From an uncultured Gammaproteobacteria bacterium (GTDB taxonomy: Bacteria; Patescibacteriota; Microgenomatia; UBA10105; UBA927): 51,698 nucleotides of DNA. The notes below the pieces were generated by a model. It made no database searches and was not told the origin of the DNA. It worked only from the letters and a program-made list of their open reading frames with translations. Made by a program: the position numbers and the translations under genes. The first letter of the stretch is position 1, and each line of letters opens with the position of its first letter. The stretch is from NCBI GenBank assembly GCA_964367095.1, contig CAYIXE010000002.1, forward strand, positions 1-51,698. The letters are read 5' to 3'. This document shows, in pieces, positions 21,001 through 50,234 of this stretch.

Positions 21001-24000
21001 TCCTGCTTCAATTGTTCAGGCGTAATAAAGTTTACTTTGGACGCGTCACCATTCAGGAGTATCCTCACAAAAGCTTCATGATACGTCTTCAACATCGACA
21101 CCAAATTTTCATTTATATTCTCTCGCTTCCTTTGTGCTTGAGATGCCAAATCCTTATACTTCACGTCTGTTTGTAGTTGGTTAAATAAAGACATCATTTC
21201 ATCAACAGTCTCACGAGTAACATCACTTAGTTCTGCTAATTGTTCGAATGTGTATTGTGTATTGGTCTCCAATATAAATTGCACATACTGCGCATACCAT
21301 TGTATCAATCGCATAACTGCAAACGACTCCTTAGATAGGTTAAGTTTATGCAAATCAAGGCCAATAATATGCTCTGCACGTTCCACGAATGTAAGATTTG
21401 TAAAAATTCCTTGAAACTGTTTATCATATGGATGACCAATAGATGTATCAGATAATGCAGCTGGTAAAAGGGTAAACTCTGTAGGCAAACCAGGACTAGT
21501 AGTCAAATTTGATACCAATAACTGATCTCCTGCACTATCGCCTTGGTTAATCTCTACGCCGCCCATCTTCAAAATATTTTGACTGTCGAATCGAGAAATT
21601 CTATCTTTTGTAGTAGCCAGTTTGTATATTTCTTGCAGCTCAACTGGCACAAGTGAACTATCGGCGTTATTAGCTATACCAACTGCGAGCATATCGAGTA
21701 ATAATTCTCTGTAATTTTCAACATTCGCTGCCTCCTCGATAGATATACTCGGAATTCGCCCCAACATAACAAGGACTTGATACTGAAACACCTTTGGCAG
21801 ACTTGTAAATTGCAAAGATTGAAGTAACAACGACCGACGATCTTCATTCGTTGAGAAAATCAACACGTCTCGTATCGTTGATTCTGATTTCGGATAAAAA
21901 GCACGCGCTACATATTCAAGAAATTGAGCGTTAACTGCGATTGGTTGATACGGTTCTTGACTATAAGATCCAGGGTCAACAAACCGAAGCGTATCATCAA
22001 TGGTATATATGGCATCAAATACCTTATCCTGTTCAAATAATCCATTTTGACGAAGTAAATATTCTCGATGACCATATTGATATGCTTGTCGAACTGTTAA
22101 TCCTGGAGAGCCACTCGTGTCAGATTTAGAAATTAACAACTCCTCAAAAATAACATGATTATCCTTATCTATTAAATATGGCTTTACCGTGTATCGATCA
22201 GAAGTCGTAACAGCAAATTCGCCTTTTCGCTCTGCTTCTCGTAGTGTATTTGCCATCACATATTCATTTTCGACACTCTGAATTACTGTAACAACGTTTT
22301 TAGATTTCTGAACCTTAACGGCCATGTACTCCGCAACCCCTTTATCGTTCGCATTCGTTATATGTACCAAATAAACAAACCCAAATCCTCCTTCTGATAT
22401 ATATCCTTCTACCTTTACATCCCACTCTTGTTTTTTGGCAGACGAAATAATTTCTTGCACATTTGCACTGTCACGTGTATCTTCTAACGGTTTTTTCATC
22501 GCCTCAATTGCTTTAATCCGTTCTGTTTGCAAAATTCCGTCTTCCTTGAGTTTTTCTGGATTGATAACATTTATTTCGCTTAATTCTTTTTCTTGTAGTA
22601 ACTTCCCTGCTTTTACATTAAGTATTTCTTTGGAATCGGAAAATTTCGCTTGTTCTTCTCTCAATCTACCCAACTCCAATGCTAACTGTCTTTCTGCGTC
22701 TAGTGACGTAGTAAGTTCTGCTATATTCAATCGTGCTTGTTTTGACAAAGAAGCTTCCCTAAATGAAAGATCTTCCGCGTGCCCAATCTTTGCCGATACT
22801 GATTGAAGTACTCGTTGAACACGCCTATCCCATTGTGGTTGTAAAGTATTCTCAAATGCCACCAGCGCTTCGGAAATTGCTTCTAATTGTTCCAAAGTCT
22901 TCATGCGATTGAGTGCTTTATCTTTCATCAACGCCTCCAACTCTTCAAGAAGTGCTAACGGCGTCTCACGCGTCACTGCTAATCCTGCCGTATTTAAAGC
23001 ACTTTTTAGTGTTCTGGTCGCAGTTCTTAACGTATTTGATATTGGAAAAATTGAGACGCGCGCAGCCAGAGACCGTAGTCCACGAATAATTGGAGGTATG
23101 TTTGCTGCTTGTTCTGCTATTTGTTGTCGACGGGCATCAATTTGTACTTTTCGCTTTTCTGCAGCTCTCAATTTCTTTTCTTGGTCTGCAATCTGTTGTA
23201 AACGCTCTCGCTCTTTTACATCTGTCTTCCCAACTCGTTGGAGTTCTTTAGCATCAAGGTCAGCAAAAAATGTATCAAGTTTTGCTTGTAATTCTTTATT
23301 TTCTTTTTCTATCTGTGCTAACCGTTCCGTGGCGTACGTTTGGCGTATGGCTGCAACCACTTGTATCATCCATGTAGCCCTATCTGTACCTGCATCTGTA
23401 AACTCTTCAGGAGTCAATTGCCATGTAGTAGTAAGAAGATTGAGTATTCGCTCCTCAAGTATTGCATCCGAAACTCCCTGTATCGCAAGCCCTCGAAACT
23501 GATTTTCTGACACGATTTCATTCGCCGCCAAGAAAAGATTTTCTATGGCATCTAATCTTCGCAGCATACTCATGGATCGCACAGCTCCAAGTTCAATTAT
23601 TGGATTTGCCGCGGGCACCACACCTGACAGAAATGCTTGCCTGATAGTTGCATTAAATGATCCTTTGCTATCCATTTCTTCCAACGATGGCAACAATACT
23701 TTCGGACTCGTCAATAATGGCGCTATAGGGGAGCGTGGGCCTTCAATTCCCCCACTCTGCTCGGGCAAGCCTAAAACATACTCCGCAAATGGCTTCAAAA
23801 AGGAAATCTTACCTGCACTGAGCGGAGTCGAAGTGTTATGTGCCACGATACCATTGCCGATGAAGGTATGTGTACCATCTACTTCTATATCAAACACTTG
23901 CTCTCGTTTGCCTTTTGTAATCGAGACGATTTCTTCCCACCCATCTGCAGTCGCTATCCTATCGCCCTTTTTGAGGAATTTCACTTTCTGCCAAACGGTG

Positions 24001-27000
24001 GTATACTTTTTTCTAGATAAAGGACCATGTGAACTCGCTGATCCATGTAACCACTCATGGTGAAGAAGTTCTGAAGCCAAGAACCCATTGAGGATCGAAT
24101 TGGCCAGGGTCCTTTTCTGTTGACCTAGCACGTTTGATTTGACATGCTCTTCAGCATGTGATATGGTTTCTTCAGATAAGAGCTGAGGGATAACCAGTTC
24201 CCGACGTCGACCCAACATGGATGCATTTGTATCCTGCGGCGAGAGAGACAGCTCTTTTTCTGTACTTATAACTCCACGTTTGTCTACGCTCCCTAACCAC
24301 ATACAAGACAAAAAGAATTTTTGTCCTTTACCGATTGAACACACTACAGCTCTCACACGCACAAACTCAACAACAGCAGAAAGCGTCCAATATTCTATAA
24401 CCATATCGGATTTTTTCACTTTCCTGTATCCTTGTACTATTCCCGTGTTAGCAATGACATGTGGTACTCTTGGAAGAGCAAAAAATCTGGTAATAAGTTC
24501 ATTTATAGATCGATCTTTTTCTACAAAATGATTCCATCCTGTACGAGTAAAGAATACGTTACTTTTGAGAGCTTTTGACCAAACAGATGAACCCGCCAGA
24601 TGATTCATATAATATGCGCGAGCCACATCTTCCGAGTACTCATATGTATCTTTCTGAATACTATTAACATCATGAGGTTCCATATTTAATAAATATGGGT
24701 GCTCACTCGTTGTGCGGATAGTTTTTCCTGATGTGGTCGTCAATCCATAAACCTGCTGTACACCTTTTTTGAGAAGTTTATTGACGCGAGCAGGTTCAAG
24801 CTTGTGCGTAAATTCATTAAGGGACAATATTTCGTCGCCAGGCTCGATCTGATCGATACGAACATCCTCATACTCATCCGGATCCCCTGTCCCTCCGTAG
24901 CTTTTAGCGAAGGGGGATTTTTTCTTTCGTCGTCTTCGACGAAGCTTTGTGTCCCCTGTCACGCACTCAGGAATATCTTTACTGCTTGCTTGATTCTTAT
25001 TCTGCACCCCGTTATCAAGCGCGTTGATGATACCAAAAAGGGTTACGTTTTGTCCGTTGTTGGTGATAAGGGAGATAAGTTTGGCGCGAAGTACAAGATT
25101 ATCGAGGAGAGAAGACGCATCTTTGGCATCGTCCCATCCAGAACTCGTTTTCTCCAGTGCTTCGATTGACTTTTGAGTTTCGGTCAAGGCCTGGGGAATT
25201 TGAGAAGGAGCTTTGATCCCGACCGATCCAATCACACGAAGATAAATAGTCAACAGTGCGCGGGTATTTTGGACAGTACCGGTAAATTGAGACTGCAGAG
25301 AAGATATGGCAGTAGTAAATTCAGGATCTTTTACCAATGTATCAACAGCTTCTTTCAACTCTTTACCGGATGCATACGCAGCAAACATCGGGGCTACAGA
25401 CTTTATAAATGACTCCGTCAACACCTTCTTACGATTCGCTTTTTTCATGCCTGTCAACAGGGCGTTACCAATCTTTTTTGACGCAGAAAGCAATTGATTC
25501 TTGGTAGGAGGCTTAGGAGCTGGTGCCTGCCCCGGCGTAGTCGGCCTAACATCACTGCCTTGACGAGCTGGTTTAGGTCTACTCACATCAGGAACATGTC
25601 CAACAGTCTTAATCGTTTCTAATGTACGTTGTAATGTATCAAATGGTATCAAAGCATTTCGAACTACGTTATTTTTCCCCATCTCTTCATCAAGAGCGCG
25701 CCTGACCCATGTAGCAATACGATAAACATATAAATCATCACTCCACTCTTCTTGAGGCGCGTCGCTAGGATTAAATTCTCTCACTATATCTCCACGTAAT
25801 CTCAATAAATTTTCGATATGCAAGAAACGTTGGTCATCGGCTTCACGTAATACTTCGTTATATCTTTGGAGTGGTTCTATTATCTGTTTTTGTGATGCAC
25901 TGCTAAAGGCTTGCCTTAATGATGATGTCTGTCCAAAAATACTAAAAATATTTGCCGTATCCCATTTACCTTCATTTAAAACTATATTTAGAAGGTGTAA
26001 CGTATATTTTTCATAACCCGATACAAAAGCGGTTGTCCTAGCTTGGCCTATCGCAATATCTTCTACAGCACTCCCTTTCAGTCCATACGTCTTTCCCGCC
26101 TTTTCAATAGCACTCTTCACTCCAGGTGTTAGCTGTGTATACAACTCTCGGGATAAAGACTCAGGATTATTTACATAGTTTCTTAACGTAGAAAGCGCTT
26201 GAAACGTCGTCCGGCCATTATCGTACAAATATTTACTTCCTGCCCGCTCGTTTGCTGTCTGTACTGCAGTAACAGCATTAATCGCATCGGAAAGTGTCAG
26301 CAATTGATAACTATTAAATGAATTTGCCACTCCTTGAAGGTTACTTAGGGCATCGTTCACGACGTGTTCATCAACGTCATGTACTGAGTTTCTGCTGTTT
26401 AAGACAGGACGAAGCAAATCATATACGATCTGATTGCGCTTCCGAAGGACATCGGTTGAAAGGATCGCTTGCAAATCTGCCCCAAGCGTATCGCTAGCAC
26501 TTTCCAGCGCGAGTATTTGAGCTTGTACTGATGACACCCGAATATTATGAGATTTTTCTGTGTCGAGTACTTTTCCATTATTTGTCAATAATTCATACGA
26601 GATATCTATACTATCCCGACCAATTGCCTCTTTCAACACTTTATGAGCCTTTTCAACTTGAGCGCCATATCCATTCTTCTCAATACTTTTTTGCAGGCTC
26701 TCTATATCTCTAACGAAGTCGATAAGATTACTCTCTCGACTATGTACCTTATTCACTTCTTTTTTCATTCCCTCTGTCCTCGTCGCAATACGGGAAAGCC
26801 ATGTGTCAATCAGCGCTTTTGTCACAGGAGCATCTTTTTCTCCAGGCTCAAGCAATCCAAGATCAGATACTTGTTTCACTGCGTTAGTCAATAACTCTTT
26901 TTCTTCCAACTCATTTATCCGAGCCATGAGTGCAGCATGAGCTTTTTGAAGACTTATTACCGTGTTAACCAAGCGAATAGGAACCGTTTGGGTAAACGCC

Positions 27001-30000
27001 GCGTCCTTAAGCAAAGTCAGCACAGCACCCAGCGATTTTTGAACTTTCCCAAGAGTATCAGGCGTTTGATCTTCTAGGGCCGCTTGTCGCTCCCCTTCTT
27101 GAGCTACCTCGACAAGATATGAAACGATGCCGCTGCCAATAGAAACAAAATTATTTCTGTCTATTCCCTTCGTAATCTTATTCAATACTCCCTGTCCAAA
27201 ATCTTTGGCCGGCGCTAAAGCGATAATTTGACGAAACGCCTCGTTGGCCAAAACAATTTTTCGCGCATTATGACTAAAAGTCATCGCCTCTGCCAGTTCA
27301 GTTCTCATTTCGATAGCTTCTTTGTCAGTAAGCGTAATACCCAAATCCGAAAGACTTTCTTCAAGATCATCCATCGTAAGCATGGTACTTCCCTCTGCAC
27401 GAATTTCCCGACTCGCCGTTTCCATTGCGATACGTAGTTCTTGATCAATCGCTAACCCACGAAGCCTTTCCACCTCGTTATCTACTTCTGTCTGTGAAAA
27501 TTTCGAAGAAAGTGGTGTTAGAACAATTGGCAAATTATGAGTACTGATTCTTTCAGAAAGCTTGTCATACACACTTCGGTCGACGGGCAGTGTTTGTGAA
27601 GACTCCGCATTCTTTAACAACGCCAAATCCTTTTTTGCATTCGCTTTTGTTTGAGCTCCTGACTCAATATATGATCCATCGATAAATTTATTGAGAACAA
27701 CATCTCTTAGATGTATTGCGTTCGTAAAATTCGGACTCAGAATATCTAACCGAACAACATTGTGTCCATCTGTATATATCGCTCCGTAATCTTGAAGCAT
27801 ATTACCAAGTCTGATGCCAATACTAAACGACGGTTGCGTTGTATCCACTGCCATTCTTTGCAATTTTTCCTCTAAATGCGCTAAATCAGTAACTAAATCT
27901 GAAGTCGTACTCTGAAGGGTGATTGGGTAGTTCTCTGGGTATCCACCCGATTTAAGATCAGAAACAAACTTGGTAATTTTATTTTGTATCGATTCATTAG
28001 AACCTTTCTCTTGCCCTTGCCCAGCTGTTTCTTTTTCCAACCCATCAATATATCTTTGCGCTTCGATAATGTGCTCGTCATATATTTCTTCAAGTGTTGG
28101 GATACGCTCACGGCTAAGAGTATCAACGGCCCTGCGCTTCAAGCGTTCTACAAACCTAAACAAAGGATTTTCTGATAACGTTTCTGTCTTCTTCAATTCT
28201 TCAACTAGTGTGTTCAGTTCAGTCTGTGGATCCTCTGAAATCTTCATTGTCATAATCGCATCAAAATCCGACAGATACATGGTGTCTAAGAATGTACCTA
28301 CAGCCTCGAGAACAGTTTTATTTTTCTCTGAATCCTTAGCCGCCTTTACTATTTCATCTGCAAGTTTGAGTCGATTCTCATTTGAAGCATTGCTGTATAT
28401 TTTCGCCTCAGAAGGTTGATTGAGTATCCGCATAAGCGCCGCCAATTTCTGATTGGCAAAGTAGGCGGCGGTGCTAAAGAGCATTTCATTGCCAGGCTCT
28501 CCACTTTTCTTATGCTTTTCCCGCTCTGCGTTTACAATCTTTATAACACCCTCATATTTACTCTTGGCGTCATCATACTGCCCCGCTGCTAATAAACTTC
28601 CCGCTTCTGTAAATAATTGGACAAAAATTTCCTTCAATTCTTCACAGCTACCACATGCGAGCGGTTGGAGCTCTGCTCCCCTGTCTACTGCCTTCTCAAG
28701 ACCCTTTATTCCTTCTGTAAGCCCTCGCGCAAATTTATCAATGTCCTTTTTTTGATTAGCAGTAAGTGCTTCACCGCCTATTGGTGCGCTTGCTTTTTCT
28801 TCTATCTCTTCTACAGTCGCATCAAAATATGAAGAATCGTCAAATGTAACACGAAGCATAGACGCACCATCTCGCTTTTCAGGGGATACTGAAGCTACTC
28901 CAATTTTTAAAGAAATATCCCCATCCACTCCAAGCATTACTTCTACTCTAGAAACATCATGGTCTAATGAAGAATCTCTGTAGATATAGAATACATTTGT
29001 CAATGGAATCTCTTTCCCATCACCCACATTGATTTTACGTATACTGGCCGCACCACCGGTATCTAAAACAATTTTAGGAATTTCAATCTTTGATGAAGCG
29101 GTATCTATGCCTGTTTGTACCAATTTATTGAGCCCTGAAGAGTTAGAAAGGTATTTTTTGTTTAACGAAATATTTAATTGCCTTAACGCATCTACGTTAT
29201 CAGTAGTCAGAACAATGCTTTTTTCCGCTCTATATTGGAGCTCGTTCAACACCAACTCTAACTCTTGTTTTTTCGTGATTGCCAGCTCATCCGGACGCCT
29301 AGCCTTAGTATCTCCAAATCCATCGATGAGTCGTAATGTCCCTTCGGGTGTCAATATAATGTTTATTGAACGCAGGTCGCCATGAACAGAACCAGTTATT
29401 TTCCAATGATTTATAACATCCCTGACAAATTGGTTCACCTGTGCCAAGGTAAGTATTTTATTCGTTGCATCGAACATCCGAGTCCCCTCCACAAACTCAG
29501 CGACAAAACCAATAGTCTGACCATCTTTAGTAACATCGCTGTAATAGCGAGTAATATTTAATCCACTACTATAGTTTTCCTCTGTCCCGTATGTCCGATA
29601 ATATTGAAGCTGCGTTTGATTCGAGGAATCCTGAGGATTCTCAAATATCTTTACTGCATATATTTTTCCTGAGAATCCTTTTTCCACAAGAATAAAAGCG
29701 GACTCACCAGATAAAATTTTATCTCCAGTAATCTGGATAACATCTCCATTATTTAAAATGATCTTCGCGGGAACTATATATCCATTTGACAGCGTTACTG
29801 TTAAGTCCTCCGTCTGCCCAAATGCACTGAATAAGGAGGTACCACTATAAGGATATGTATCGGCTCCAGTTCCTTCAATTTCGACTAACTCCTCTAATGG
29901 CAACACTTCTTCAGATTGATCAAAGCTCTCCCACTCTGGCTCTGGAGGAATATCTTCCTGTATCGTAATCTTTGGAGATAGGAGTTCTTTTATTTGCAGT

Positions 30001-33000
30001 TGTATCAAATTGATACTCTCTGATAACTTCTCAAGATCTGCCCACGAGGCTACCTGGGCACTTTGCGCTTGAATCTCAGCTACTGTGGCCTTAAATACTA
30101 CTACATTTGGAATGGTCTTATAATCCAACGAAAGCATAGACTTGGTCACTGTTTTCCACTGCATATCCGCTATCTGCCGCAATAACATTATTTCCTGCTG
30201 GTGTAGTCTGTCTAATTCTTCTGCATTCTTTTCGCGCGCCGCTTGTGCATCTTCTAAATCAAGCCCCGCAATCATACTGGCCCTCTGTGCCTCTTTAATT
30301 TGCTTCAATAATTGCGTATCAGTATTTTTTGCCTCAGCGTATAATCGCTCCGCTTCAGAAAACGCACTAGTTAATGCTTTTATTTTCGCAGCATTTTCTT
30401 GACTCTCATCCTTACTAAGAGCAATCTGATTTTGAGAGATTTTTTTCAGCGCGTCATTCACGCGTCCAATCAAAACTGTAATATCAAGCTGCATCTGTAC
30501 AGGCAGTACAGCATTAGATATATCTGGTAATTTATCTATCTTGAGTTTTTTTGCTTGCCCTATAAGACTCTTTAACTGTGATTGACTACGGAATTGTACG
30601 AAATAGTCATCAAGTGTTGCATCTATAAGTATTTTCTCTGTATTTTCACCTACCGTGGCCTGAAGAAGCGTTTTATATTTTAAGACAATACCTTTGGCCT
30701 CCTCATCCGTCCAGTTATTCTTTAAAACCAAAGAGGACAGCTGTAGATATGCGCTGTCATACAAATCCTTCCTATTATTATCCCGAGCCATCATAAGTCT
30801 AAGATTTGCTGATTGGTAATATAAACTATAGATTCCAAATTGTTTCTCTGATAAAGTGCTACTAATTAATTTCCCTATCTCAAAGATACTCCGGCCTGCA
30901 CCCTGAATCTCCTCAATCGAATAGGATGCTTTTTGGGCAATCTCCTGTAATTTCCCGATGGCAACCGTAAACGCATCAGCATTCGCATTTACGTCCTCTC
31001 CTCTTACAAGAGAAATACCGTCGGAATCAAGACTTACTGTAATCGTCGCATCGCCCAACTGTAGCGTATCTCCTTTATGGAGTTCTGTAGCGTCTGTCAC
31101 ATCCTTGGTATTAACTTTCGTTAAAGAACCAGTATAGGGCTCATAGAACCACCTGTTATTGACCTGATGAATCGTCCCATGCGCATTCTTAATTGCCTGA
31201 TCTATGCCTATATTTGGAAGAAAAATATTTACAAATTCACCTGATCCAATAATAAATTTTTTCGGCCCTTCTGAAGTTATTGCCGCATCGATGGTATTTA
31301 TTCTTACCGTTTGATTGGGTTTGAGTGTCCCTCCGCCTCGCACATCCTCTATGATAATTCCCAGATCGTCGCCTCTATTTGTCTCAAACGCTTTACTTAT
31401 TCGATTCATCATCACCGTAGGAACTTCAAACTGTGTACCCAACACCCATCGCAATAATCCTATTGCTTTTCTGGATTCTATTTTCCCAGAAACAGGATTT
31501 CGCACTGAAACATATTGACCTTTTACAGCAATATCAAACTCACGTGTTTTATTGTTTCCATCGGCAGGCTTTACTAATTCCCACCCAACCAAAGACTGCA
31601 AATGATCACTCCCTGATAAAATCACAAAATCGCGCCCAGGAGACAAATGAAAGCTCGCATATTGCGCTCTCGCTTGTTGCGAGCTAAACATATCTTGAAC
31701 TTGTGGACTTTTTGCAGTCTGAAATGTGTAGCCAGTGGCGATGCCCTCATAGACGTCATTTCTGTTTATGTCTACTATTTTTGAAGCTACATAGGCTTTT
31801 GAAACGCTTCTATCAACCACTAATATTACGCTATCAGCAATTGTGGCAGTGTGCAGCATATTTTCTGTCGTATCTAATACATAAATTCCTGCGGTACTTG
31901 AACCATTGAACCCTGTTGAATCCCCTGTAATAGCGAGTATGTCTTCATTTGCACGGTCAATCGCATTTTGCATTGCTTCTCTAATATTTGAATCATCTGT
32001 TTCTAAACTTTCTGACAGATACTTACCGACTAATTGCGTGACCATGTCCGCCACATACTTGCTGTTTTCTCCGCCTTGAGTCACACCATCTGAAGTCACT
32101 CCTACCACCAACCTCTTGCCAGTATTAGTAACGATCTCAGCGCGATACGGCTTACCATCTTGGTATGAATGAGGACTACGCCTTTGATTAGCAAACTCTG
32201 CTATACCAGCAAGATTAGACCTTATACGCTGCGGCAATAATCCAAGCAACGAATCAGTCGCTTTCCCGAGATTAGCAATAGCTTTTTGTAATAATTGAAA
32301 CTTAAGAAACGAAGCATTCAGTCGATTTCTGTCCGCTGTTTGATCTGTTGAAGGTGCAAAAGAGGTGATCTTATCTTTCTTCGCTTTTGCCTTTGCATCC
32401 TGCAATGCTTTTTTCGACGCATACTCTTCAACGTCAAGGGTAAATTGATTTCGCAAAAATGTTGTATTTTCTTGGGACGTAATTTTTGTTTTCTCTTGTA
32501 ATAACTTCACCGCATTATCAATATCCTCAGGATGAATATCCTTAGAAGAATTAATATAATTTTTCATCGCCAGCGAATACTTTTCATACAATTCTGCCTG
32601 AGTTTTCAATTGTGCTTCGGTATACTCTGCTAACGCTACCACAGCTTGTGGTGCGCTCAGCGCTCTCACTTTTTCACTTTCTGCTAATGCAAGCGCTTTT
32701 TTAGCCGTCTCTACTTGAATCCAAAGATCATCTTTTTTCACTAAATGATCTGCATATTGTTTTCTTAATGGATCTATCTTCGCTGATTTGCTTTTATAAT
32801 CTTCTTCTAGCCTCTTAAGCTCTTTAGTAATTCTGTCTTCAGAAATAGTCTTAGCTCTAAGAGCGTTTTTAATTTCGTTTGCTTTTTGCGTAGCTTCTTC
32901 TAACGTGAGCTGAGCCTCTACGGGAATAGGCTTAACCTTTTCCGCTGGCTGACTATTTGGATTCATCGTGGTGAGAAATATCGATCCAAACCCAACCTGA

Positions 33001-36000
33001 CTGCGTGATGGTATACGAACGATAAATCCAGCACCTTTGCTGCTTAGCCAAATACGATCACCGTTTGACAACGTTTTCGCTTGAGTATCTTCCGAATCCA
33101 ATTTTCCGTTCTCGTTAAATATACTGCTTTTGTTTACATAAACGCCATTGGTCGAATTCAAATCTTCTACAACCCAAGAAGAACCAGAATAATATATTTC
33201 TGCATGATTTCTACTGACATCCGAATCTGTTAATACGATTGTATTATTAGTGAAACGGCCAATGCTGGCTTTATTCTTAACTCCAAATACTTTACTATCC
33301 AACTCTAACGTTTCATGATCTTTTACTATATATCCCAAATTTATCGCTGGTTCTGCGTCTGCAATCCCTATCGATGACATCTCGACAGCTTTTTCGGAAA
33401 GCGTTGGCTTTCTATATGGCTTTTGAATACTCGGAATAAACTGAATCGGCTCACCGTTGTTTGCTATAACCTGATCATCGCCAATAACCCAACCAGACAT
33501 AACATAGGTTGGAAATGAACGAAAATCAGGAGCTGCATGATCAAAATATGTTAACGTTGTCAACGTATACGCTAAAGGATCTCGACCAATAAAATTTGAC
33601 CGCAGTATTTCTTTGTAATGTTCGACAACTTGTGGGTTTAATACGGCAAATATCGGATCAAAAATTTCCTCAATTGTTTTAATACGTTGATCATATGAGG
33701 CCCATTGGACTTTCGCTTTAACGTCTACTAACTCGGCCGATTCTTTTATGAGAGCAATCGCACGCTTTGATGTAAATGGGATAGCAAGATGCAAAATCCC
33801 GGTATTACCACTTTCTTGTTGGGCCGAACCAAAATCACTCACCATGTGAGCTGTTTGAGCTCCCGAATATGCAGCGTCATCAAAATAAACAAAATCTACT
33901 ACTCCCTTATCTCCATTCCTTTTTTGCCACTGAGCCAAATCAGTAATTGACACGACTGCGACCGGTTGGCTTGTTAATGAGTCGCCCTCAAGCGATTGAC
34001 GAGCAATTTCTCGCACCCACGAATCGCTTGCTTGAGGATCATCAGACGTGACGATTACAAAAGGCTTTGATCCCAAAGATTTTTTCAAATCTTTCACTGT
34101 CTCGCGAAGTTGCTTCATAAAATCTTCAAACGAAATACGTGTTATATTGTTTGAAATTAACGTTGCCACGTCACGAATTTCACCATCAGGATGAGCATTT
34201 ACCCACTGAGTACGTTTCCTCTCATCAAATAACGCTGGTTTCACCGACAAATTTGGAGTTTCCACGACTTCTTCTATGAGACTCACAGCACCACCGGTAT
34301 CTACGACAGTCTCAACAATAGGCGCAATTTTCACATCTCTAGCTTGAACTTGCAAATGTTGAATACCATCTTTTAGCTTTACAATCCAATACAATAAACG
34401 ACCAGATCCACCAGACTCATTTTCATTACTTATCACTTTTGCCTTTACCGTAATCGTGTTCACGCCCGTTGTGTAGGTAACATCAACTTCATCACCCACT
34501 TTCACTGGATTATTTGCCACCATCGAAATATTTGTCGCACCAGCTATGTAGTTATATCCTGCAACGGGTGCAGGTTGTGCTGCAGGTGCAATTATTTTTT
34601 CTCTGTAGACTGTGTACGAACCATTACTGTTTCTTGCAAACACCGTTTTTTTGTCATTTATCTGAAATTGTATTTGATCTTGCACAATTTCTCGTTCAGT
34701 ATTTGTAGGAACATCACGACCTTTTGAATCCTTTACCCCAAAACGATCTATAGTGAAAAATAGTGACGTTATTGTTCCATCGTTTCTCCAGTTGGTATGG
34801 CCATATTGCGTCTGTAAATCAGACCGAACTGTGGTTAGTATCAATTCTCCTGAAGCATGCAATCCGATAAAGACTATCTGGCCATCTTTAATGTCTCCCA
34901 TCAATTCATAGACATTCAAATCGATTGCAACCGTCGCTACTGGCGCAGAAACTGGAGGAACAATCACTCTTGGCTGTTGTGCTGGCGTTATTTTAGTCCG
35001 ATTGATGACCCATCCAACGCCCCGCGCTGCTTGATACACGCTAAATGGAACTGTGATAATCCATAAGGGTATAACTGCTATGAAAAAAAATACTAAACCG
35101 ATTAACGGAAGACTCGCTAACCACGGAGCAATAAAGAATGAAGCTATGCCAAGTACTCCTAATGTCAATAACGTTCTTCTTAACGGAGCGTTAAGGATAT
35201 TCCATAGTCCGCCAGTACGTGCAAATATCGATTCCTTTACGATCGGCACCTCTGGTGAATCTTGTGGTGCAATAGTTGCAACTTGCGGCCTACCTGTACG
35301 AACTTCAAGCAATCGTGACAAAATTTGATCAATAAATTTTTTCCGATTTTCCTGCCATTGTTGATCAGATTCAGTAAACCCATAAAAAACTAATTGTACT
35401 TTTCCTGCATTTTTTACAATAGCGAAATAATCAACAAGCGCTTCTATTTCTTCAGCCTCTAATCCAATAATATCTTTACTTGTTTCCAAAATAGAATGGA
35501 GCGTTGTCTTATCTTCTGCAGAGAGCTTCGTGGTTCGCGGCGTCGATATATCCTTGACAAGAAAATTGTAACTTGCTCGTCCTAAAAGCGCTAACAACTC
35601 TGGACTCTTCGCTGAATCGCTTTTAAGAGCATTTGCTATCTTAACTTGACCAGTTTGGTACTGTGGATGTCGTTTGACAGCCTCTACCGGAAAACCGCTC
35701 AATAAACCGAAGCGTTTATCCTGAATTGGAGTATAACCTGAAATATTTAGCCACAACCATTCATTTGGATTTGCTATGAGCCACGCTCTAGGATCTTTTT
35801 GAGCCTCCGATGAATTAAATATATCAGAATTCTCTTGAATAATTTTTTTGGCGAGATCAAAATTTACTAGTGAATACCGCTCGAGACGCATCTCATCTGT
35901 CTCATCTGGGTGATGTATAAGTCCAACTACACCCCCCAAATCGTTAAGCGTTTTATCAATCTGGGCTTTTTCAGAATCTGTCAAATTCAAGAAGGCTTGT

Positions 36001-39000
36001 TTTTCTGGTAATCCTCCCGCAAACACAGCTGCAAACTGGTCATCATATTTCTGTACTTGATTCCGAACTCTTGGGACAAGAGCTGATCGAAATAATTGGT
36101 AATTTTTCAATCCAGTTTCAGCAGGTTCTGGAAGAGGTTGTTTTGCTGGCGCGACTTCCGCAGGTGGCAGCCATTTCCACTCTTTTAATGGATGATATAT
36201 TTGTGATTTCCCTAAACTCTTCCACCCATCACCGTAGAAAAATCGATGTGCATCGTAGTGCCATAATGGGCCAGTTGTTAGTCCTAAAATAGCTGCTGCT
36301 GCACCGATAATAAGTGGTGCCCCTGGTATCCACCACGTCGCAATTCCGGCAATTAGAAGAACTATCGCTGGCCCGCGAGTTGTCCACCAGATAAGCGAAT
36401 CATTTGTCGGTGTCGCATTGATCAACCGCCTCGGAACAAGACCAAACATGTGTCCACCCCTATTCCAGTAATCAGGTTTTTCATATCCGGCGTCTATAAG
36501 CTTTGCAGTTTTCCCTGTCACCCCTTCTACATACCGTCGCTCTGCTCTATATATATCCCACCCCAACAAATAGGGACGGCGAATCCTTGTGATTGTATGT
36601 GTAAATATGCTCGTAAACCAAGTTAATGGTGTCCATTGCGGATTTCCCGCGTCAAACATCGTCGCGTTTACTAAACTTTCAAGATACCCCTCTCGACTAT
36701 CTGCCAATACGTTTACCACCAGTTGTTGCGCATCTTTCGGTACCACCCAATCAACAAATTTTTTCAAACGTGGATATCCATCCAGAATATGTATATCTCC
36801 CAAAAAGAAATTCTGCACTCTCGGCCATTGTGCGATTATATAAAAAGGTAATTCCAATGCTGTCCGTAAAATATCATATACTGCAATTCCAAGAGAAATC
36901 GGTATACCGGCAGGCCCCAAAAACACTATCGGCGCTGCATATCGTGGAATAATGCTTGCGATCGCAAAGGTTAATTCAGGTGTTGAATAACGTTTACCAA
37001 AGATTGCATAAACATTCGGTGAAATAATTGCCTTTATCACATTGCCAAACTTCACCCACTCATTGGGCTCTAATCGATCTTGATGGGTTGATTGAACAGG
37101 CTGTGTAGCTTGTCCAGTCACATTCTGAGCAATTGGCGTTGAAGCACTATTCCCCTGCACATACGCGATAGCACTTGCAATGATCGCGTGTTTAGTAATA
37201 AATGCGTCTATTGCACGCTCAGCCGGCGATTGGGTCACAGGAATTGATGTAAACGTATTTTGTGCACGTTCTTGCCCCAATGCTTGAAGTGAAACAATAA
37301 CTCCGTGTTTATGAAGTTCTACTAATTCACTCGTTAATACGTCATCAAATGACCGATTGGTATTCTGCCTCATCTGAACTGTGGAAATGACAGCAGAGTC
37401 ATATCCAGCAATTGCGTCTACAAGGGTGATCTCTTTCTGTGTTTGCGGTGTATCATTTTGTAGCTCACCGTATTCATCTTTCAATCGACTCCAAATATTT
37501 TTTCTAATTTCAAGACTCAATGGATCAGCTATTTCTTTAGCATCTCCATCTTTGGATTCCAAAATCGTTGCAACCAACGCATACGCTTCTGCAGGATGAT
37601 TAGTACTAAATAATTGCTGGATAAATGCTTGCGCCTTTTTCTGTGCTACATCTGATTCTGTCGTAAGCTTAGTCACGTCATCGATTGCACGTTGAATTAA
37701 TAAAGCATCCTTTGTTGCGTTCGCATTAGAAAGCGCCGTTTCCGCTACTTTTTTGGCTGCAAATGTTTTTATATATACATCAAGCTCTACAGGCAACACG
37801 ATAGACACTGTTGGTGGTTGCGCTTCTGGCGGCTGACTGGCTGGCTTTTTTGTATCCTGTCGGACAAACTTTACAAAATCATCCTTGGTTAACGTGCGAG
37901 GGATAAAGGCTTGTCGAAATGACTGCCAGTTTTTTGCGATAAACTGTCCCGCAATTGCAAGTCTGCTCGGCCGAGAAGCTTTTCCTGCCTGCTGTAAACG
38001 ATCTTGTTGAAAAGTGATTACCTGTTCTAGCGCGCTATTCTCAAGACTGGAGAGAATCGGCGCTGAAATTGCCCGAGTCATCTCGCCTACCAGAGCTTGT
38101 TTATGGGCATCATCTTTCACCTTGTCAAGAGAACCATCGGAAAATTCAACTATGTCTCCCAGTTTCGCCTGTTTTGCTATCTCAATATTAGATTGAGCTT
38201 TTTCAAGCTCTGTATTTTTATACGTCACACCAGGAGCAGTGAGAATTACAGAAATAGCATCTGCCAAAACACCTTCTATGTTCTTTGTTTGCTCTGTCAC
38301 AAATGCCTTCGTCTGTTCGCTTGAAGCATTTGCTCCAATTGATCCGACTGCTTTTGATACCGCTTGCTCATAATTTACCATTGCAGCCGCCGCAATATTT
38401 AAGTTGACAACACTAAGCGAATCTACATTTATGACCCCTGACTTTGCGAGTTCTGCCTTAAGACGCTTCATTGCGTCTTCTTTAAGCATATCTGTTATCT
38501 GATCATCAGTTAAACTTAAAAGTGGAGCAATCAAGGTATCAATTTGAGCTATTTGTGTATTCAATTCCTGCAAGACTGTGCTACTTGGCGCAGTCTTTGA
38601 TCCATCGGTTACTAGTGTGGTTTCTGGGTGTTCATCAATGTTTAACATGCCATCAAAAGAATCGGGAGTAATTATACGAATGTCCGTAACACCTGCTGGA
38701 ACAGCAAAAGTGGTGTTGGATTTATCATCAAAAGTAAATGTATGTAACTTCGTTGAAGAAGGGGTGTCAAACCACTCTATTCGTGTCCCGTTTGTAATAA
38801 CTTGAGAGGCATCTACGTCTTTTTTATTCGTAATAACAACATCATTGAGAGTAATCTTTCCCGCATTACTTATAATCTGTGATTGCACATTTACTGCCGC
38901 AGTGAGTGATCTTTGCTTTATCAATTCTTGTTGACGAGTAAGAAATATTGACCGCTCCTGTTGGGCGAGAGTAAGCGTATGTCTTTCTTCTGGGGTCAGG

Positions 39001-42000
39001 AGTTTACCCGCTAAAGCCTTCTCTGCCACTGCTTTTGCCTTGGCTATAGAATCCAGTGCGACTTGTATACTTTCGTTACTTCGTGCTGAAGCTGCTCGTT
39101 CTAGCTGTGCTATTTGTTCTCGCGTTGATGCCGTGGGCGTCTGCCGGCCTTCACGGCCTATAGTGGCCGCGATGTCTGACTCAAATATCGCTTGATTTAT
39201 AAATTTTGTTCGTTCTGAGATACTCTTGGCTCCCTGCAAACTTCTCCGAACCGTAGACTCTGTGGGTGAACCACCTTGCAATGCAATAGGCACATCTTCA
39301 TAGTTATAAATATTTTTTAGATAATACTCGCGGACTTCGATTGGCAATTTAGCAAATTCCGGTGTCGACTTAATACTATTGATATAATCGCGAGCACGAG
39401 TCGCTGCTTTTTGGATTGCAACTGTTCCTACTTGAGAGGACTCGGTGAGTGCATCATTTACCCCACCCACCTTATCAAACTGCAACTTTAATCCATCAGA
39501 AAGAGACATTTCTCTCCCCTCATACGTCATCGTAAAATCTTCTCCACCATATTGCTTTACCATTTTCGCCAATGAATCTATCGTATTTTTTACCATGTCT
39601 GAATACCCATGGATCAAACTATTTGTGACCGAAATTTGTGTACTCGCTATTTCATTGACAAGAAGCCGAACTCCTGCGTCTTCTAAGGCAACTTTAGTCA
39701 AACCATCTGCAGCCTGCTTATTAAAAAGATACACAATAGTTTTTTCAGGTATTTCTCGAAATCTCCCAATACCTTGTGCAGCTGATGTTTGTGTGAGCGT
39801 TTCCGCGCTTCCAAAAAGATATGATGCATCAGTGGTTATAAACACGTCCTGAATATCAGTTCCTCTTCCAGATCCTTGATCAAAAACCAAGACAAATTTC
39901 TTGTCTCCCCTATTTTTAAACGCGTATTCTTTTTCAAAGCGTTGTATTGCTGTTTTTTCACTGTCTCCAACAATTGTTCTTTTTATTGTTCCGTCTTGAT
40001 TATAGATAACTACTTTTTCATTTTCTGCAATATTTGTATCGTTATTTATAACAATCAGCTCTACATCCTCACCTAATGCGTTTATCTTTTTTTGAAGACT
40101 TTTCAACGTTACTTCTTTTGAATAATCTTGCATCTCCAAAACAATTCGAGCTGCACCTTCTTTCCCCAATGTAATATTCGCATTGTCTACATCCTTTGCT
40201 CCAAACCACTCTGTCTGCTTAATTGGTTTTGTTTCGGGTGAACCAAAAATTTGAAGAATAGACGTAAGCTTTTTTACCCCAGGAACGACGAGTTGCATAT
40301 CAAGTGATAGTTGAGCATCTAAAAGGATGCTCTCTGGAGTACCGGTAAATCCATACAGTCTGTCTGCATAATGTCCCATTCCAAGTGTCTGTTTCCATGA
40401 CGAGGACTCTCCTTGAAGTGAGACGGTTACTTTATCGATAAAGGCCATTGCCTGATCATGGGTAAATGACGTATTACGCAATGAATTTTTTATCATTTGT
40501 CCCACAGTATCAAGCGCCAGTGCTTCATAAAGCGCTTGTGGACGAGTATTCTGAAGTCTCCCTGTCCCGTCGCCATAAACCAAAATCCCTTTCGGATCAA
40601 ATCCATATCCGCTTGTGGATCTGCTTGCTGTCTCCACAATAGCGTTTACTACTCCTGCCCTATCACTAAACTCTGCTTTAAATTCACTCGTTGCCTCATT
40701 TCCCTGATGATATTTTTCGAGCGCGGCGAGCACATCTCTTGGATTTGTTCTTGCCCCTGTTTCATCATGGGTAATAAAATTCTTCTGCAAAAATTCTTCT
40801 GCTGTTTGTGTATCACCTTGTGCTTTCACTTTTTCAAATGTTTGCTTCGCTGCCTCTATCACCAAATCTTTGTACAATCCTTTGGCCAAATCCGTATCAG
40901 CAAGGGAAACACTTTGTCCTTTTTGTACAAAAAGATCATCTCCTATAGATCCTCCATTTTTCACGGTACTCGCTTTTTCTATAAAGTCTTTAGCTAAATC
41001 AGATTTGAATACATCACGAAATTTTTGCGTTCGTATGGGATCATATTCAGCGGCCAATCGTGAATCACCACCGGACGAAAACTGCATGCTGTTTGCTATC
41101 ACATCAAACTCGTCGATAAGAAGCATCGCGCCCTTGGTCCCCTCTCGAAATCCCTGCGTGAGAAGATCTCCATTTCTTGAAGCATGAAACTCATAGGGGG
41201 TCTCTAGTGTCGGGCTGTAAATGATATCTGCGTTAGAGAGTATTTGTTTGGCAAGGACGTCATTTTGATGATTTGATATGCGTTGTTGTACTCCTGCCTC
41301 ATCTACATAAATTATTTCGGCACCAGATGGATTGTAATACACAGCCTTCACTTCATTTTGATGGTGTACTAACGGACTGTAGTCTTTCATCATGCCTAAG
41401 ACATCAGCCCATGAAGTCGCAAGCACGTTTACCTTCGCACCAGTAAGTTTTACTTTTGCATCTGCAATAGCATTGAGAAGAAATGCGGATTTTCCAAGAC
41501 CTGTCTGACCGTTAAATAAGACCCCTTTTACATGGCCAGATATTTCCGTGTCAAATAACGCTTTAATAAATATTTCTGACTGGTCAACGCGAGTGAGATG
41601 ATCCGGCCCTATCATTTCGGAGATTCTACCACCAGTTGCAGCTGATAAATTATCTTCGATAGTTCGTAAAAACTTCGATGCCTCATCCAACATTTTTACT
41701 GTTGCTTCATTTTTAGGCCCAGCCAGAGTATTTTCTGAACTTGCCATATCTACCAAATATAACTGTTTATCAGCTCCTCTTACTATTTGAAATCCCTCTT
41801 TCGTCAGTGCGTCTGCTACAACTGATAATTTTCCAAGTGTATCTGCGACAACAACCTGCTTTGCAGTCGATATTTCCTTTGGTCCAAACCACTTATATCT
41901 CAGGCTCGATGTATATGCTGCCTCTTTCGCATTTGATATAGCCAGCGCTTCGTTTGCTTTCTGGGTTAATTCTATGATTGTTCGATCAATAGATTCAATT

Positions 42001-48572: not shown

Positions 48573-48602
48573 GCTCGGGATTACACGAAAATTTATCAAT
48601 CT

Positions 48603-48632
48603 ATTATAACAATCTATAAAAAAGTGGATCAA
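48603..48632 (-). promoter_or_regulatory. putative sigma70-type promoter of the giant ORF
   Basis: On the minus strand: TTGATC (48627-48632), an 18-nt spacer, then an extended -10 TGT-TATAAT (TATAAT at 48603-48608). The same 10-mer TTGTTATAAT precedes the tRNA-Ala gene at 49429-49438. Confidence 0.4.
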
Positions 48633-48744
48633 TAGTGACGATTTTGAAGACTGAGGAGATTTTTTGGTGTATTCACTTTGAATTGGCTCTATGATATGGT
48701 TTATCAAGGATTAACAAAAGCCCCGATATCCCCAAATGTTTCAT

Positions 48745-49455: not shown

Positions 49456-49526
49456 GGGCCTATAGGTAAGTGGTATACCGCTATCTTCGCATGATAGAGT
49501 CGCCAATTCGATTCTGGCTAGGTCCA
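49456..49526 (+). tRNA. tRNA-Ala (anticodon CGC), no encoded CCA
   Basis: Hand-folded cloverleaf. The acceptor GGGCCTA/TAGGTCC has G3-U70. The D stem is ggta/tacc with a GG loop. The anticodon stem is ctatc/gatag with loop ttCGCat. The T arm is gccaa-ttcgatt-ctggc with an A53-C61 mismatch. The discriminator is A. Confidence 0.75.
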
Positions 49527-49579
49527 CAAGAAAGAAAACAAATAGGACTTATAAGTCTTATAAGACGAATTAGTCAAAT

Positions 49580-50152
49580 ATGATTATGAATAAATCAGGT
49601 GGCTATGAAAGCCTTTTAGTGTATCGATTTGCAGTGGTGATATATGATTTGACAGAGGTATTTTGTCAAAAATACCTATTTAACCTCGCATTTAAGCGAG
49701 ACGTTGAGCAAATGCGACATGCAGCCCGAAGTGGGAAGCAAAATATCGCTGAAGGGTCACTCGAGAATAGTGTGGAGGGAAACCTAAAGCTTACTGGGGT
49801 TGCGAGAGCGAGTTTTGGAGAATTGCTTGAGGACTATAAAGATTTTATTCGAAGAAATAGTTTGTCTTTGTGGGAGAAAAATGATCCTAAAATATTGGAA
49901 ATACGAAAAATACGAGACGATGCCAATGGGTCAAATAAGTCTAATAGGTCTTATCAGTCGTATGTTTCTTATCTAGAAAAACCCGAAGAATTTGCTAATC
50001 TTATGGTCACGTTATGTTATACAGAGGGATACTTGATGGATCAGTTATTGAAGGCTATAGAAAATAAATTTGTCGAAGAAGGCGGGTTTCGTGAAAATTT
50101 ATTTCGAAAAAGAAGAGAGTATAAAGAGAAAGGGCCTGTGGTATACCGGTAA
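49580..50152 (+). CDS. four-helix-bundle protein (23S rRNA intervening-sequence protein / Avd-like family)
   Basis: Track ORF of 190 aa. YRFAVVIYDLTEVF ... RSGKQNIAEGS ... ARASFGELLEDY is typical of this family. The C-terminal GGFRENLFRKR looks like the described suffix domain. Confidence 0.7.
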   Translation: MIMNKSGGYESLLVYRFAVVIYDLTEVFCQKYLFNLAFKRDVEQMRHAARSGKQNIAEGSLENSVEGNLKLTGVARASFGELLEDYKDFIRRNSLSLWEKNDPKILEIRKIRDDANGSNKSNRSYQSYVSYLEKPEEFANLMVTLCYTEGYLMDQLLKAIENKFVEEGGFRENLFRKRREYKEKGPVVYR

Positions 50153-50202
50153 CACGTCGCTATGGCATAGCGAAATAGGGGGTCCGATTCCCCCCAGGTC
50201 CA
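50132..50202 (+). tRNA. tRNA-Ala (anticodon GGC), no encoded CCA; 5' 21 nt overlap the end of the preceding ORF
   Basis: The acceptor GGGCCTG/CAGGTCC has G3-U70. The D loop is accGGta. The anticodon stem is tcgct/agcga with loop atGGCat. The T arm is ggggg-tccgatt-ccccc, with C at position 55 instead of U. Confidence 0.65.
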
Positions 50203-50234
50203 CACTTCTCCCGCTGAAAGCGGGATTCGTGTGG
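50200..50234 (+). other. extended stem-loop starting in the tRNA 3' end
   Basis: ccacac..cccgc-tgaaa-gcggg..gtgtgg. No U-tract follows. Confidence 0.3.

Follow-up and report, generated by a model that had tools for sequence, protein, structure and literature searches.

A putative FHA/PP2C-like phospho-signalling cassette inside a giant protein of Candidatus Gottesmanbacteria

The giant reading frame and the block within it

The stretch of DNA analysed here (the window; contig CAYIXE010000002.1, 51,698 nt) corresponds to the last 51.7 kb of the ENA contig Hain_H52_01um_R3_167 (61,452 nt), whose name indicates the 0.1-µm filter fraction of Hainich groundwater. It carries one giant open reading frame (ORF) of a bacterium assigned below to Candidatus Gottesmanbacteria, a group within the candidate phyla radiation (CPR). 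An initial annotation had described a block of FHA, coiled-coil, PP2C-like and degenerate FHA-like domains in this ORF and had grouped it with kinase-like domains as a Ser/Thr phospho-signalling cassette. The block corresponds to residues 5134-5891 of the giant frame, where the residue number equals (48710 - coordinate)/3 + 1 on the minus strand, in the frame that spans window positions 3-48710. There is no stop between these two positions, so all parts of the block belong to the same polypeptide, as had been claimed. The order of domains in this single frame is a PRTase-CE-like domain, a first FHA domain (FHA1), a linker, a PP2C-like domain, a second FHA domain (FHA2), kinase-like domain 1, and kinase-like domain 2. 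The ORF and the domains of main interest are as follows, with Pfam bit scores given against the gathering cut-off (GA) of each profile.

3..48710, minus strand: giant ORF; 16,236 stop-free codons in a six-frame stop scan, open at the left end
33048..33266, minus strand: FHA1, residues 5149-5221; Pfam PF00498, E 1.9e-17, 63.9 bits against GA 20.7
32187..33011, minus strand: helix-prone linker, residues 5234-5508 (~275 residues); composition and periodicity test, no Pfam match
31341..32183, minus strand: divergent PP2C/PPM-like domain, residues ~5510-5790; Pfam, Foldseek and alignments
31053..31253, minus strand: FHA2, residues 5820-5886; Pfam FHA, E 1.7e-6, 28.8 bits against GA 20.7
29304..29672, minus strand: kinase-like domain 1, Pfam match at residues 6347-6469; Pkinase, E 8.3e-7, 29.1 bits against GA 31.7
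10362..10712, minus strand: kinase-like domain 2, Pfam match at residues 12667-12783; Pkinase, E 1.6e-6, 28.2 bits against GA 31.7

The C-terminal ~1,720 codons of the giant gene lie beyond the left end of the window, and its likely start codon is TTG 48599 or GTG 48515. On the complete ENA contig, the gene call for this ORF gives a product of 17,894 amino acids (aa). The giant locus is also present in other ENA groundwater assemblies. Logan contigs from four separate groundwater runs (Illumina-type) were compared with window 27000-37000, and every listed piece agreed with it at 0 mismatches and 0 gaps; one 15-kb Logan contig covers this entire region. Two other assemblies differ from the window. 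The contig_3783 sequence (L001, from a 364-kb 'contig_' assembly) has 29 gap openings and 0 mismatches over 21 kb, and NODE_2009 (L002, a low-coverage SPAdes contig) has 7 gaps and 2 mismatches. Indel errors alone break the giant gene of these two assemblies into pieces, called as 6 to 17 or more genes. The split calls were considered as an argument against a single ORF and rejected, because the differences are indels only and the four runs match the window exactly. In other words, the 17,894-aa call, the exact Logan matches, and the fact that the split assemblies differ by indels establish that the long ORF is real: a single uninterrupted giant ORF is genuine. Because of indel-split calls, protein databases hold the giant gene only as fragments (P0001, P0002, P0009, and P0012), and the giant ORF is therefore hidden from protein-level searches.

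Domains of the cassette and their relatives

FHA1 is the best-defined domain of the block. The textbook FHA domain that had been described at 33012-33310 is borne out by the Pfam match listed above. Searches of the PDB with FHA1 return the FHA structures of ArnA, EmbR, GarA, Rv0020c, and KAPP (1mzk) with E-values of 1e-9 to 1e-4, and its best NCBIfam match is FhaB/FipA (Rv0019c; E 1.3e-13). Alignment with bona fide FHA domains indicates that the residues contacting phosphothreonine are intact (G5151-R5152, S5166-R-N-H5169, and S-T-N5188-G). The Arg, Ser, and Asn whose conservation was to be checked are thus kept as R5152, S5166, and N5188, along with H5169. FHA1 is classed as a canonical FHA domain of the phosphothreonine-binding type.

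The segment that follows FHA1 had been described as a helical stretch or coiled coil. The helical part of this description stands: Lys, Ala, Leu, and Glu make up 47% of the linker and Pro plus Gly 3.7%, and its final ~20 residues are helical in the AlphaFold model described below. The coiled-coil part does not, because heptad periodicity exceeded that of shuffled sequences (p~0.03) in just 2 of 10 windows. The linker can therefore reasonably be called helical, and the periodicity test leaves the coiled-coil label unsupported.

The PP2C-like domain is far less conserved. The Pfam PP2C_2 profile matches residues 5528-5635 (E 4.7e-6, 26.7 bits against GA 24), and the NCBIfam Stp1/IreP model matches the domain at E 1e-3, far under its equivalog cut-off. 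Sequence searches of the PDB with the domain alone and with a three-sequence profile returned no PP2C match and gave weak, non-significant FHA2 matches. Likewise, comparison of the three-sequence profile with PstP by hhalign gave no meaningful alignment because the profiles are too shallow. Further evidence comes from an AlphaFold model built from the three-sequence alignment. Its mean predicted local distance difference test (pLDDT) score was 52.7, with values of 68-88 across the N-terminal half of the domain (model residues ~31-140). A Foldseek search of the PDB with this model gave 84 matches at E<=1e-3 (best E 1.3e-6, TM(target) 0.49-0.67), and the best 50 of the 84 were all of the PPM/PP2C fold. 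The top matches include Staphylococcus aureus Stp1, tPphA, Streptococcus agalactiae STP, SpoIIE, RsbX, PppA, PstP, PPM1B/K, plant PP2Cs, and TAB1. The PP2C-like phosphatase placed at 31345-32185 by the initial annotation is upheld by the PP2C_2 score above GA and by these folds. Profile searches with FHA and PP2C models, which had been proposed as a check that would refute the cassette if nothing significant matched, gave significant matches, as both FHA domains and PP2C_2 pass their curated cut-offs.

Relatives of the PP2C-like and FHA2 module are rare. Exhaustive HMMER searching across 1.84 billion cluster representatives turned up two relatives only beyond the locus. One (P0010) is a protein of 480 aa with 25-32% identity to the giant protein, from a Logan contig of 54% G+C. 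The other (P0011) is a 163-aa fragment with 42% identity, from a contig of 52% G+C. P0010 matches a second model of the PP2C clan, Pfam SpoIIE, at E 4e-4 and 20.8 bits, under the GA of 25. On its contig (L003), P0010, with its PP2C-like and degenerate FHA domains, is followed by an intein and then by a complete SecA, in overlapping stop-free frames, and this intein is 46% identical to the intein of the giant protein. P0011 lies on a low-coverage contig (L004) within a row of same-strand ORF fragments that include a canonical PP2C.

L004:6580-8643: canonical PstP-like PP2C; PDB PstP, E 1e-27

The lineage of P0011 pairs a canonical with an atypical PP2C. Other searches for the cassette were negative. 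A word-indexed search of 5.8 billion proteins returned only fragments of the giant locus and generic FHA proteins, and no relative of the cassette was found in GTDB genomes, IMG/VR, or JGI metagenomes, or by tblastn against phages and plasmids. When the downstream flank with kinase-like domain 1 was used as query, only the flank itself was found in the protein database. No cassette orthologue was found in protein databases, a search that had no positive control that related Gottesmanbacteria giants are in them; for this reason, the absence of the cassette from orthologues is not established.

The two relatives help to evaluate the active site of the PP2C-like domain. Its motif residues are H5514-x-x-Q-D5518, D5541-G5542, G-S-S-T-A, D5626-S, S-D5702-H-L, and D5781-D5782. 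The domain was aligned with PstP, Stp1, and the canonical PP2C from L004 (MAFFT and pairwise). The PstP numbering and the first 26 residues of PstP, including D25, are assumed; the remaining PstP sequence was retrieved. In these alignments, H-S-Y-Q-D5518 corresponds to N-N-E-D25 of PstP, S-D5541-G5542 to A-D38-G39, G-S-S-T-A to G-M-G-T-T, A-D5626-S to G-D118-S (the third-metal Asp), and G-D5781-D to P-D229-N. The claim that all four acidic motif positions are present thus agrees with the alignment of D5518, D5541, D5626, and D5781, and D5702 is a plausible counterpart of D191. P0010 has an identical residue at every acidic motif position, and the truncated P0011 does so at the first three. Motif 1 reads R-H-E-N-Q-D in P0011, G-H-D-N-Q-D in P0010, and P-H-S-Y-Q-D in the giant protein, with an Arg 7-8 residues before the Asp. 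Since the PP2C-like and FHA2 pair recurs in P0010 with every aligned acidic motif kept, the active site appears to be under selection. The domain is classed as a highly divergent member of the PPM fold whose metal site looks intact, and it is predicted to be a phosphatase.

FHA2 is the second, degenerate FHA domain that had been described at 31040-31258. It aligns with positions 2-67 of the 67 positions of the FHA profile, and the alignment shows the phosphate-contacting Arg replaced by S5823, the Ser by K5841, and the Asn by S5862, with the structural His5844 alone retained. The FHA domain of P0010 has lost the same phosphate-contacting residues. Because Arg, Ser, and Asn are all replaced, FHA2 is predicted to be phosphate-blind. 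In other words, FHA2 belongs to the FHA family by fold and profile and should not bind phosphothreonine. This FHA domain always lies beside the PP2C-like domain, and neither of the two full-length members has a version that should bind phosphate; it is probably an appendage of the phosphatase that serves packing or docking independently of phosphorylation.

Kinase-like domain 1 begins ~450 residues after FHA2, and kinase-like domain 2 lies ~6,200 residues further along the chain. The Pkinase profile matched both of them only from the N-lobe through the DFG motif. Their catalytic residues (beta3 Lys, Asp and Asn of the catalytic loop, and the Mg-binding Asp of DFG) were identified by inspection, and HMMER alignments back most of them. 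Kinase-like domain 1 contains K6353 (in AVK), H-G-D6445-L-R-S-I-N6450, and D6463-G-F. Kinase-like domain 2 contains H-G-D12764-W-K-L-D-N12769 and D12787-F-G; a candidate for its beta3 Lys, picked by eye, is K12651 (in VVVVK), which lies outside both alignments. The PD-T4-6 kinase model of PADLOC matches domain 1 at E 2e-5 and domain 2 at E 1.8e-8. Domain 1 also gives weak Bud32 and PAK/PknG matches; domain 2 also matches a PHROG Ser/Thr kinase (E 1.5e-5) and, in the PDB, CaMK1G (E 7e-5) as well as APH(2'')-Id. A search of the block with PADLOC and PHROGs gave generic Ser/Thr-kinase similarity only, with no assignment to a defence system or phage family. A single-sequence AlphaFold model of kinase-like domain 1 had a pLDDT of 37.8 and was unusable. 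The E-values of both are significant, but because their scores are below GA, the two domains are termed kinase-like and are not filed as Pkinase members; they may act on protein or on a small molecule. The proposal that writer, reader, and eraser of Ser/Thr phosphorylation are combined in one chain is supported with reservations: two kinase-like domains do lie in the same frame, but their scores are below GA and the roles are assigned from family membership. Except for the coiled coil, the initial annotation described the block accurately.

A proposed built-in phospho-switch and its alternatives

Where the cassette lies relative to the membrane bears on its function. Hydropathy scans identified an N-terminal transmembrane (TM) helix and two proposed boundaries on either side of the cassette.

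Residues 56-74, minus strand: N-terminal TM helix; hydropathy scan
35040..35174, minus strand: hydrophobic hairpin, residues ~4513-4557, with basic residues after it; hydropathy scan, proposed boundary upstream of the cassette
17802..17861, minus strand: TM helix, residues ~10284-10303; hydropathy scan, proposed boundary downstream of the cassette

The internal hydrophobic helices are found at residues 3913-3947, 4106-4146, and 4513-4557 (window 34911-37073) and at residues 10284-10303. This distribution suggests that the giant chain crosses the membrane several times. Before the helix at residues 10284-10303 comes a strongly basic stretch; after it come a neutral, Pro-rich segment and then LytR-CpsA-Psr (LCP)-like and GDSL domains. 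Because the basic residues lie at the inner sides of the flanking helices, the positive-inside rule would place residues 4558-10283, and with them the cassette and kinase-like domain 1, in the cytoplasm. A cytoplasmic position, which is probable, would give the segment access to ATP and Mn2+/Mg2+. The distribution of Cys residues is also uneven: there are 45 in residues 1-1,800, mostly as close pairs, 0 between residues 1797 and 6686, and 16 in the remaining ~9,500 residues. Such sharp compartmentalisation of Cys supports a change of compartment, and it suggests that the N-terminal region is extracellular and disulfide-bonded. Pro/Thr-rich linkers accompany this Cys-rich region (window 43300-48710).

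How would the cassette act? On balance, we lean towards the reading that the block is a built-in, KAPP-like Ser/Thr phospho-switch of a giant membrane-anchored Gottesmanbacteria protein. FHA1 would dock on phosphothreonines written by one or both kinase-like domains, be they in the giant protein or in its partners. Docking would bring the tethered PP2C to those phosphosites for erasure, so that a mega-protein spanning the membrane would carry, on its cytoplasmic face, a switch that resets itself. By analogy, the cassette may work like plant KAPP, which is membrane-anchored, or like the KI-FHA-PP2C phosphatase DRA0334 of Deinococcus. The order of KAPP is indeed found here, with an FHA domain of the phosphothreonine-competent type N-terminal to a PP2C-like domain in one polypeptide.

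Several points weigh against a built-in switch. The PP2C_2 match is marginal and is confined to profile positions 19-124 of 209, that is, to half of the profile, and the C-terminal half of the PP2C-like model is of low confidence. For motif 8, the correspondence of S-D5702-H-L with S-D191-G-L of PstP comes from a pairwise alignment whose local score lacks significance. In motif 1, the phosphate-binding Arg has its canonical spacing only in P0011 and is off that spacing in the giant protein and P0010. Both kinase-like domains score under the Pfam cut-off, have no recognisable C-lobe, and resemble small kinases of the APH/Bud32 type. The same positive-inside logic that places the cassette in the cytoplasm puts kinase-like domain 2 on the non-cytoplasmic side. 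Furthermore, the number of helices in the cluster at residues 3913-4557, and hence the topology, is uncertain. Finally, the stretches of relatives compared with the giant protein end before residue ~3,600, short of the cassette.

One alternative is that the PP2C-like domain is a TAB1-like pseudophosphatase and FHA2 a pseudo-reader, so that the region serves as a structural or docking scaffold and the sole biochemical role, that of binding, falls to FHA1. The half-profile PP2C_2 score together with the lack of a sequence-level PDB match, the presence of TAB1 pseudophosphatase structures among the Foldseek matches, and the loss of all three phosphate-contacting residues from FHA2 fit this alternative. 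So do the long insertions between motifs 6, 8, and 11 and the fact that the three relatives do not all keep the canonical glycine pair of DGxGG or the motif-1 Arg. However, all metal-binding Asp residues that align (motifs 1, 2, 6, 11, and probably 8) are kept in the giant protein, P0010, and P0011 at 25-42% identity, which is not expected of a decayed active site, and the structures that match the fold best come from bacterial PPMs that are active. We consider this alternative unlikely.

A second alternative is that the giant protein or fragments of it act in trans as an effector, presented or delivered to a host cell to rewire its Ser/Thr phospho-signalling. It presumes an episymbiotic CPR lifestyle and likens the giant protein to polyvalent or polymorphic effector proteins. 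The N-terminal ~1,800 residues are Cys-rich, Pro/Thr-rich, and extracellular-looking, the chain carries enzymes of secreted type (GDSL and LCP-like), and the central region is fast-evolving and orphan-like. For Omnitrophota, an action of giant proteins on prey has been suggested (bioRxiv 10.1101/2023.11.21.568195). The weak LPD3 match (23.3-23.8 bits) and the PRTase-CE match also point in this direction, since both families were described from conflict systems. However, LPD3 is under its GA of 27 and lies inside the intein, not in the host protein proper. Furthermore, no relative was found in phage, plasmid, or viral collections, the giant locus is chromosomal and syntenic, the charge distribution of the flanking hydrophobic helices puts the cassette inside the cell, and the vicinity of the block yielded no signal for secretion or cleavage. 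An effector role is accordingly improbable in our estimation.

It is very hard to credit that the matches arose by chance or composition in a very long sequence with no phospho-signalling role: among ~16,000 residues scanned, weak matches are expected somewhere, and the PP2C_2 and FHA2 scores are modest, but FHA1 has an E-value of 1.9e-17, the FHA2 and PP2C_2 matches (~1e-6) survive correction for ~30 queries, three adjacent matches form a biologically recurrent combination, the fold search gives PP2C structures only, and the homologue P0010 matches SpoIIE, so that Pfam and fold searches refute this reading as far as sequence analysis reaches.

The built-in switch can also be framed more boldly. 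The PP2C and pseudo-FHA unit is found in three unrelated lineages, each time in apparent giant or fragmented-giant ORFs. A tentative and rather doubtful extension is that a CPR bacterium with a ~1-Mb genome spends ~5% of its DNA on a membrane-spanning mega-protein with a complete cis-acting Ser/Thr circuit of kinase-like writer, FHA reader, and orphan-type PP2C eraser, which would regulate its own enzyme modules, extracellular as well as cytoplasmic, without diffusible partners, and that PP2C plus pseudo-FHA constitutes a PPM subfamily, not recognised before, that is specific to giant proteins.

The built-in switch has counterparts among known systems. KAPP and DRA0334 of D. radiodurans share with the giant protein the placement of an FHA domain N-terminal to PP2C in one chain, in which a phosphothreonine reader targets an eraser; DRA0334 combines a KI-FHA and a PP2C in one protein (bioRxiv 10.64898/2026.01.23.701218). 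Unlike in these proteins, the pair begins at residue ~5,100 of 17,894 aa and is split by the ~275-aa helical linker, and the giant protein adds a phosphate-blind second FHA fold and two kinase-like domains. Its PP2C is also far more divergent, and the likeness to KAPP consists in shared domain families. A second comparison is with PknA/PknB-PstP-FhaA/FhaB(FipA) of Mycobacterium tuberculosis and PpkA-PppA-Fha1 of the type VI secretion system, which represent the same three functional classes as the giant protein. These triads of Ser/Thr protein kinase, PP2C, and FHA protein are separate operon-encoded proteins that regulate cell division or a secretion machine. In contrast, the giant protein fuses the parts, and its kinase-like domains are truncated, of Bud32/APH size, and under the Pkinase cut-off.

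The giant proteins of Omnitrophota (West-Roberts et al. 2023, bioRxiv 10.1101/2023.11.21.568195; 2026, bioRxiv 10.64898/2026.06.07.730766) are similar in architecture. They are membrane-anchored with cytoplasmic signalling modules (bioRxiv 10.64898/2026.06.07.730766), and giant TM-anchored multi-domain proteins with signalling modules and Ser/Thr phosphatases are described from Omnitrophota and Actinobacteriota (bioRxiv 10.1101/2023.11.21.568195; 10.64898/2026.06.07.730766). Shared features include non-repetitive ORFs of >10,000 aa, ultra-small and probably host-dependent bacteria, TM anchors, and sparse domains. SecA is recurrent in Omnitrophota giants, and the cassette relative on L003 adjoins an intein and SecA fusion. 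Unlike the Omnitrophota proteins, the giant protein described here belongs to the phylum Patescibacteria (Gottesmanbacteria), and no sequence relationship with them was found. The terms FHA and PP2C have 0 occurrences in bioRxiv 10.64898/2026.06.07.730766, and a literature search found no paper linking Gottesmanbacteria to giant genes. Polyvalent proteins (Iyer et al. 2017, PMC5512222) share with the giant protein many unrelated enzymatic domains in one chain and, weakly, LPD3. In contrast to them, the giant gene is chromosomal, near rho, M23, and tRNA genes, and its product is ~10x longer than typical polyvalent proteins. Polyvalent proteins are defined as encoded by mobile elements and carrying LPD domains, and the giant protein falls outside this definition.

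The biochemistry proposed here is not new: bacteria use FHA, PP2C, and Hanks-type kinases as their standard kit for Ser/Thr signalling, and fusions of FHA with PP2C have precedents. Three features set this case apart: its host belongs to the CPR, a single 17,894-aa chain unites reader, eraser, and kinase-like domains, and the unit of PP2C-like and pseudo-FHA domains is nearly an orphan. If active, the cassette would offer a handle on the regulation of giant proteins. It is also a defined, expressible fragment of ~800 aa for biochemistry on proteins of uncultured CPR that are otherwise intractable.

Other domains, host and gene neighbourhood

Most of the giant chain has no detectable domain. 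The remaining domains outside the cassette and the kinase-like domains are the following.

33573..34163, minus strand: PRTase-CE-like domain, residues 4850-5046, directly upstream of FHA1; Pfam PF24390, 28.1 bits against GA 27
23835-24965, minus strand: class-1 intein, residues 7916-8292; Cys7916 first, ends in His-Asn, with Thr8293 as the +1 extein residue
18132-18215, minus strand: DnaJ-like match, residues 10166-10193; helices I-II only, profile positions 1-27 of 63
Residues 10453-10632, minus strand: LytR_cpsA_psr-like domain; Pfam, 24.2 bits against GA 24.6
Residues 10843-11026, minus strand: GDSL hydrolase; Lipase_GDSL_2, 58.6 bits

The weak LPD3-like match is an insert in the intein (residues 8029-8116), at the usual place of a homing endonuclease. 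Residues 10166-10193 are probably a J-like remnant with no HPD motif visible, and not a functional J domain.

In many Gottesmanbacteria, the surroundings of the giant gene are syntenic. Upstream of it, on the same strand, lie an M23/LysM peptidase gene and the C-terminus of Rho, and between the M23 gene and the giant gene there are two tRNA-Ala genes and an opposite-strand ORF that resembles a 23S rRNA intervening-sequence protein.

49456-50203, plus strand: two tRNA-Ala genes (anticodons CGC and GGC) flanking a 190-aa ORF

The M23 protein of the window is 96-60% identical to proteins from metagenome-assembled genomes (MAGs) of Candidatus Gottesmanbacteria/Patescibacteria, including bins from Hainich well H41, and the host is assigned to Candidatus Gottesmanbacteria. 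A stop-free ORF starts just downstream of the M23 gene in the representatives of at least 21 Gottesmanbacteria species. These ORFs were followed to the 10-kb limit of the flanks, 1,100-3,175 aa in, and were still open there (loci L010-L048). Over its first ~3,200 residues, the giant protein shares 55-61% identity with L010 (CAYIBX010000002.1) and L011 (JBBTUH010000028.1) and 25-34% with more distant relatives. The giant gene is thus identified as a syntenic, fast-evolving long gene of Gottesmanbacteria. Its chromosomal, syntenic context and the lack of relatives in IMG/VR, phage, and plasmid collections indicate that it is not cargo of a mobile element. It would make up ~5% of a genome of ~1-1.2 Mb, going by related MAG contigs that are complete or nearly so and measure 0.99-1.2 Mb.

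Many of the MAG records with an M23 protein 60-96% identical to that of the window (L009, L010, L014-L016, and others) are titled 'uncultured Gammaproteobacteria bacterium'. Because the closest named relatives are Gottesmanbacteria/Patescibacteria, these titles look like placeholder mislabels.

The 190-aa ORF between the tRNA-Ala genes has a sub-threshold match to the 23S rRNA intervening-sequence protein (28.9 bits against GA 33.8), and its 3' end overlaps the second tRNA-Ala gene by ~20 nt. Within the giant ORF, an antisense Rfam tRNA match at window 1641-1708 (plus strand) scores 29.4 bits against a GA of 29 and is absent from the ARAGORN predictions; it is probably a false positive.

Internal repeats in the giant protein are few. 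The repeat-bearing stretches are window 6900-9100 and 3-6000 on the minus strand (residues ~12570-16233). A 66-aa unit occurs at residues 13225-13290 and 13821-13886 (85% identical), and Trp-rich motifs of ~50 aa lie on both sides of kinase-like domain 2. Further repeats of the C-terminal third are found at residues 14250-14344, 15574-15620, and 16118-16233.

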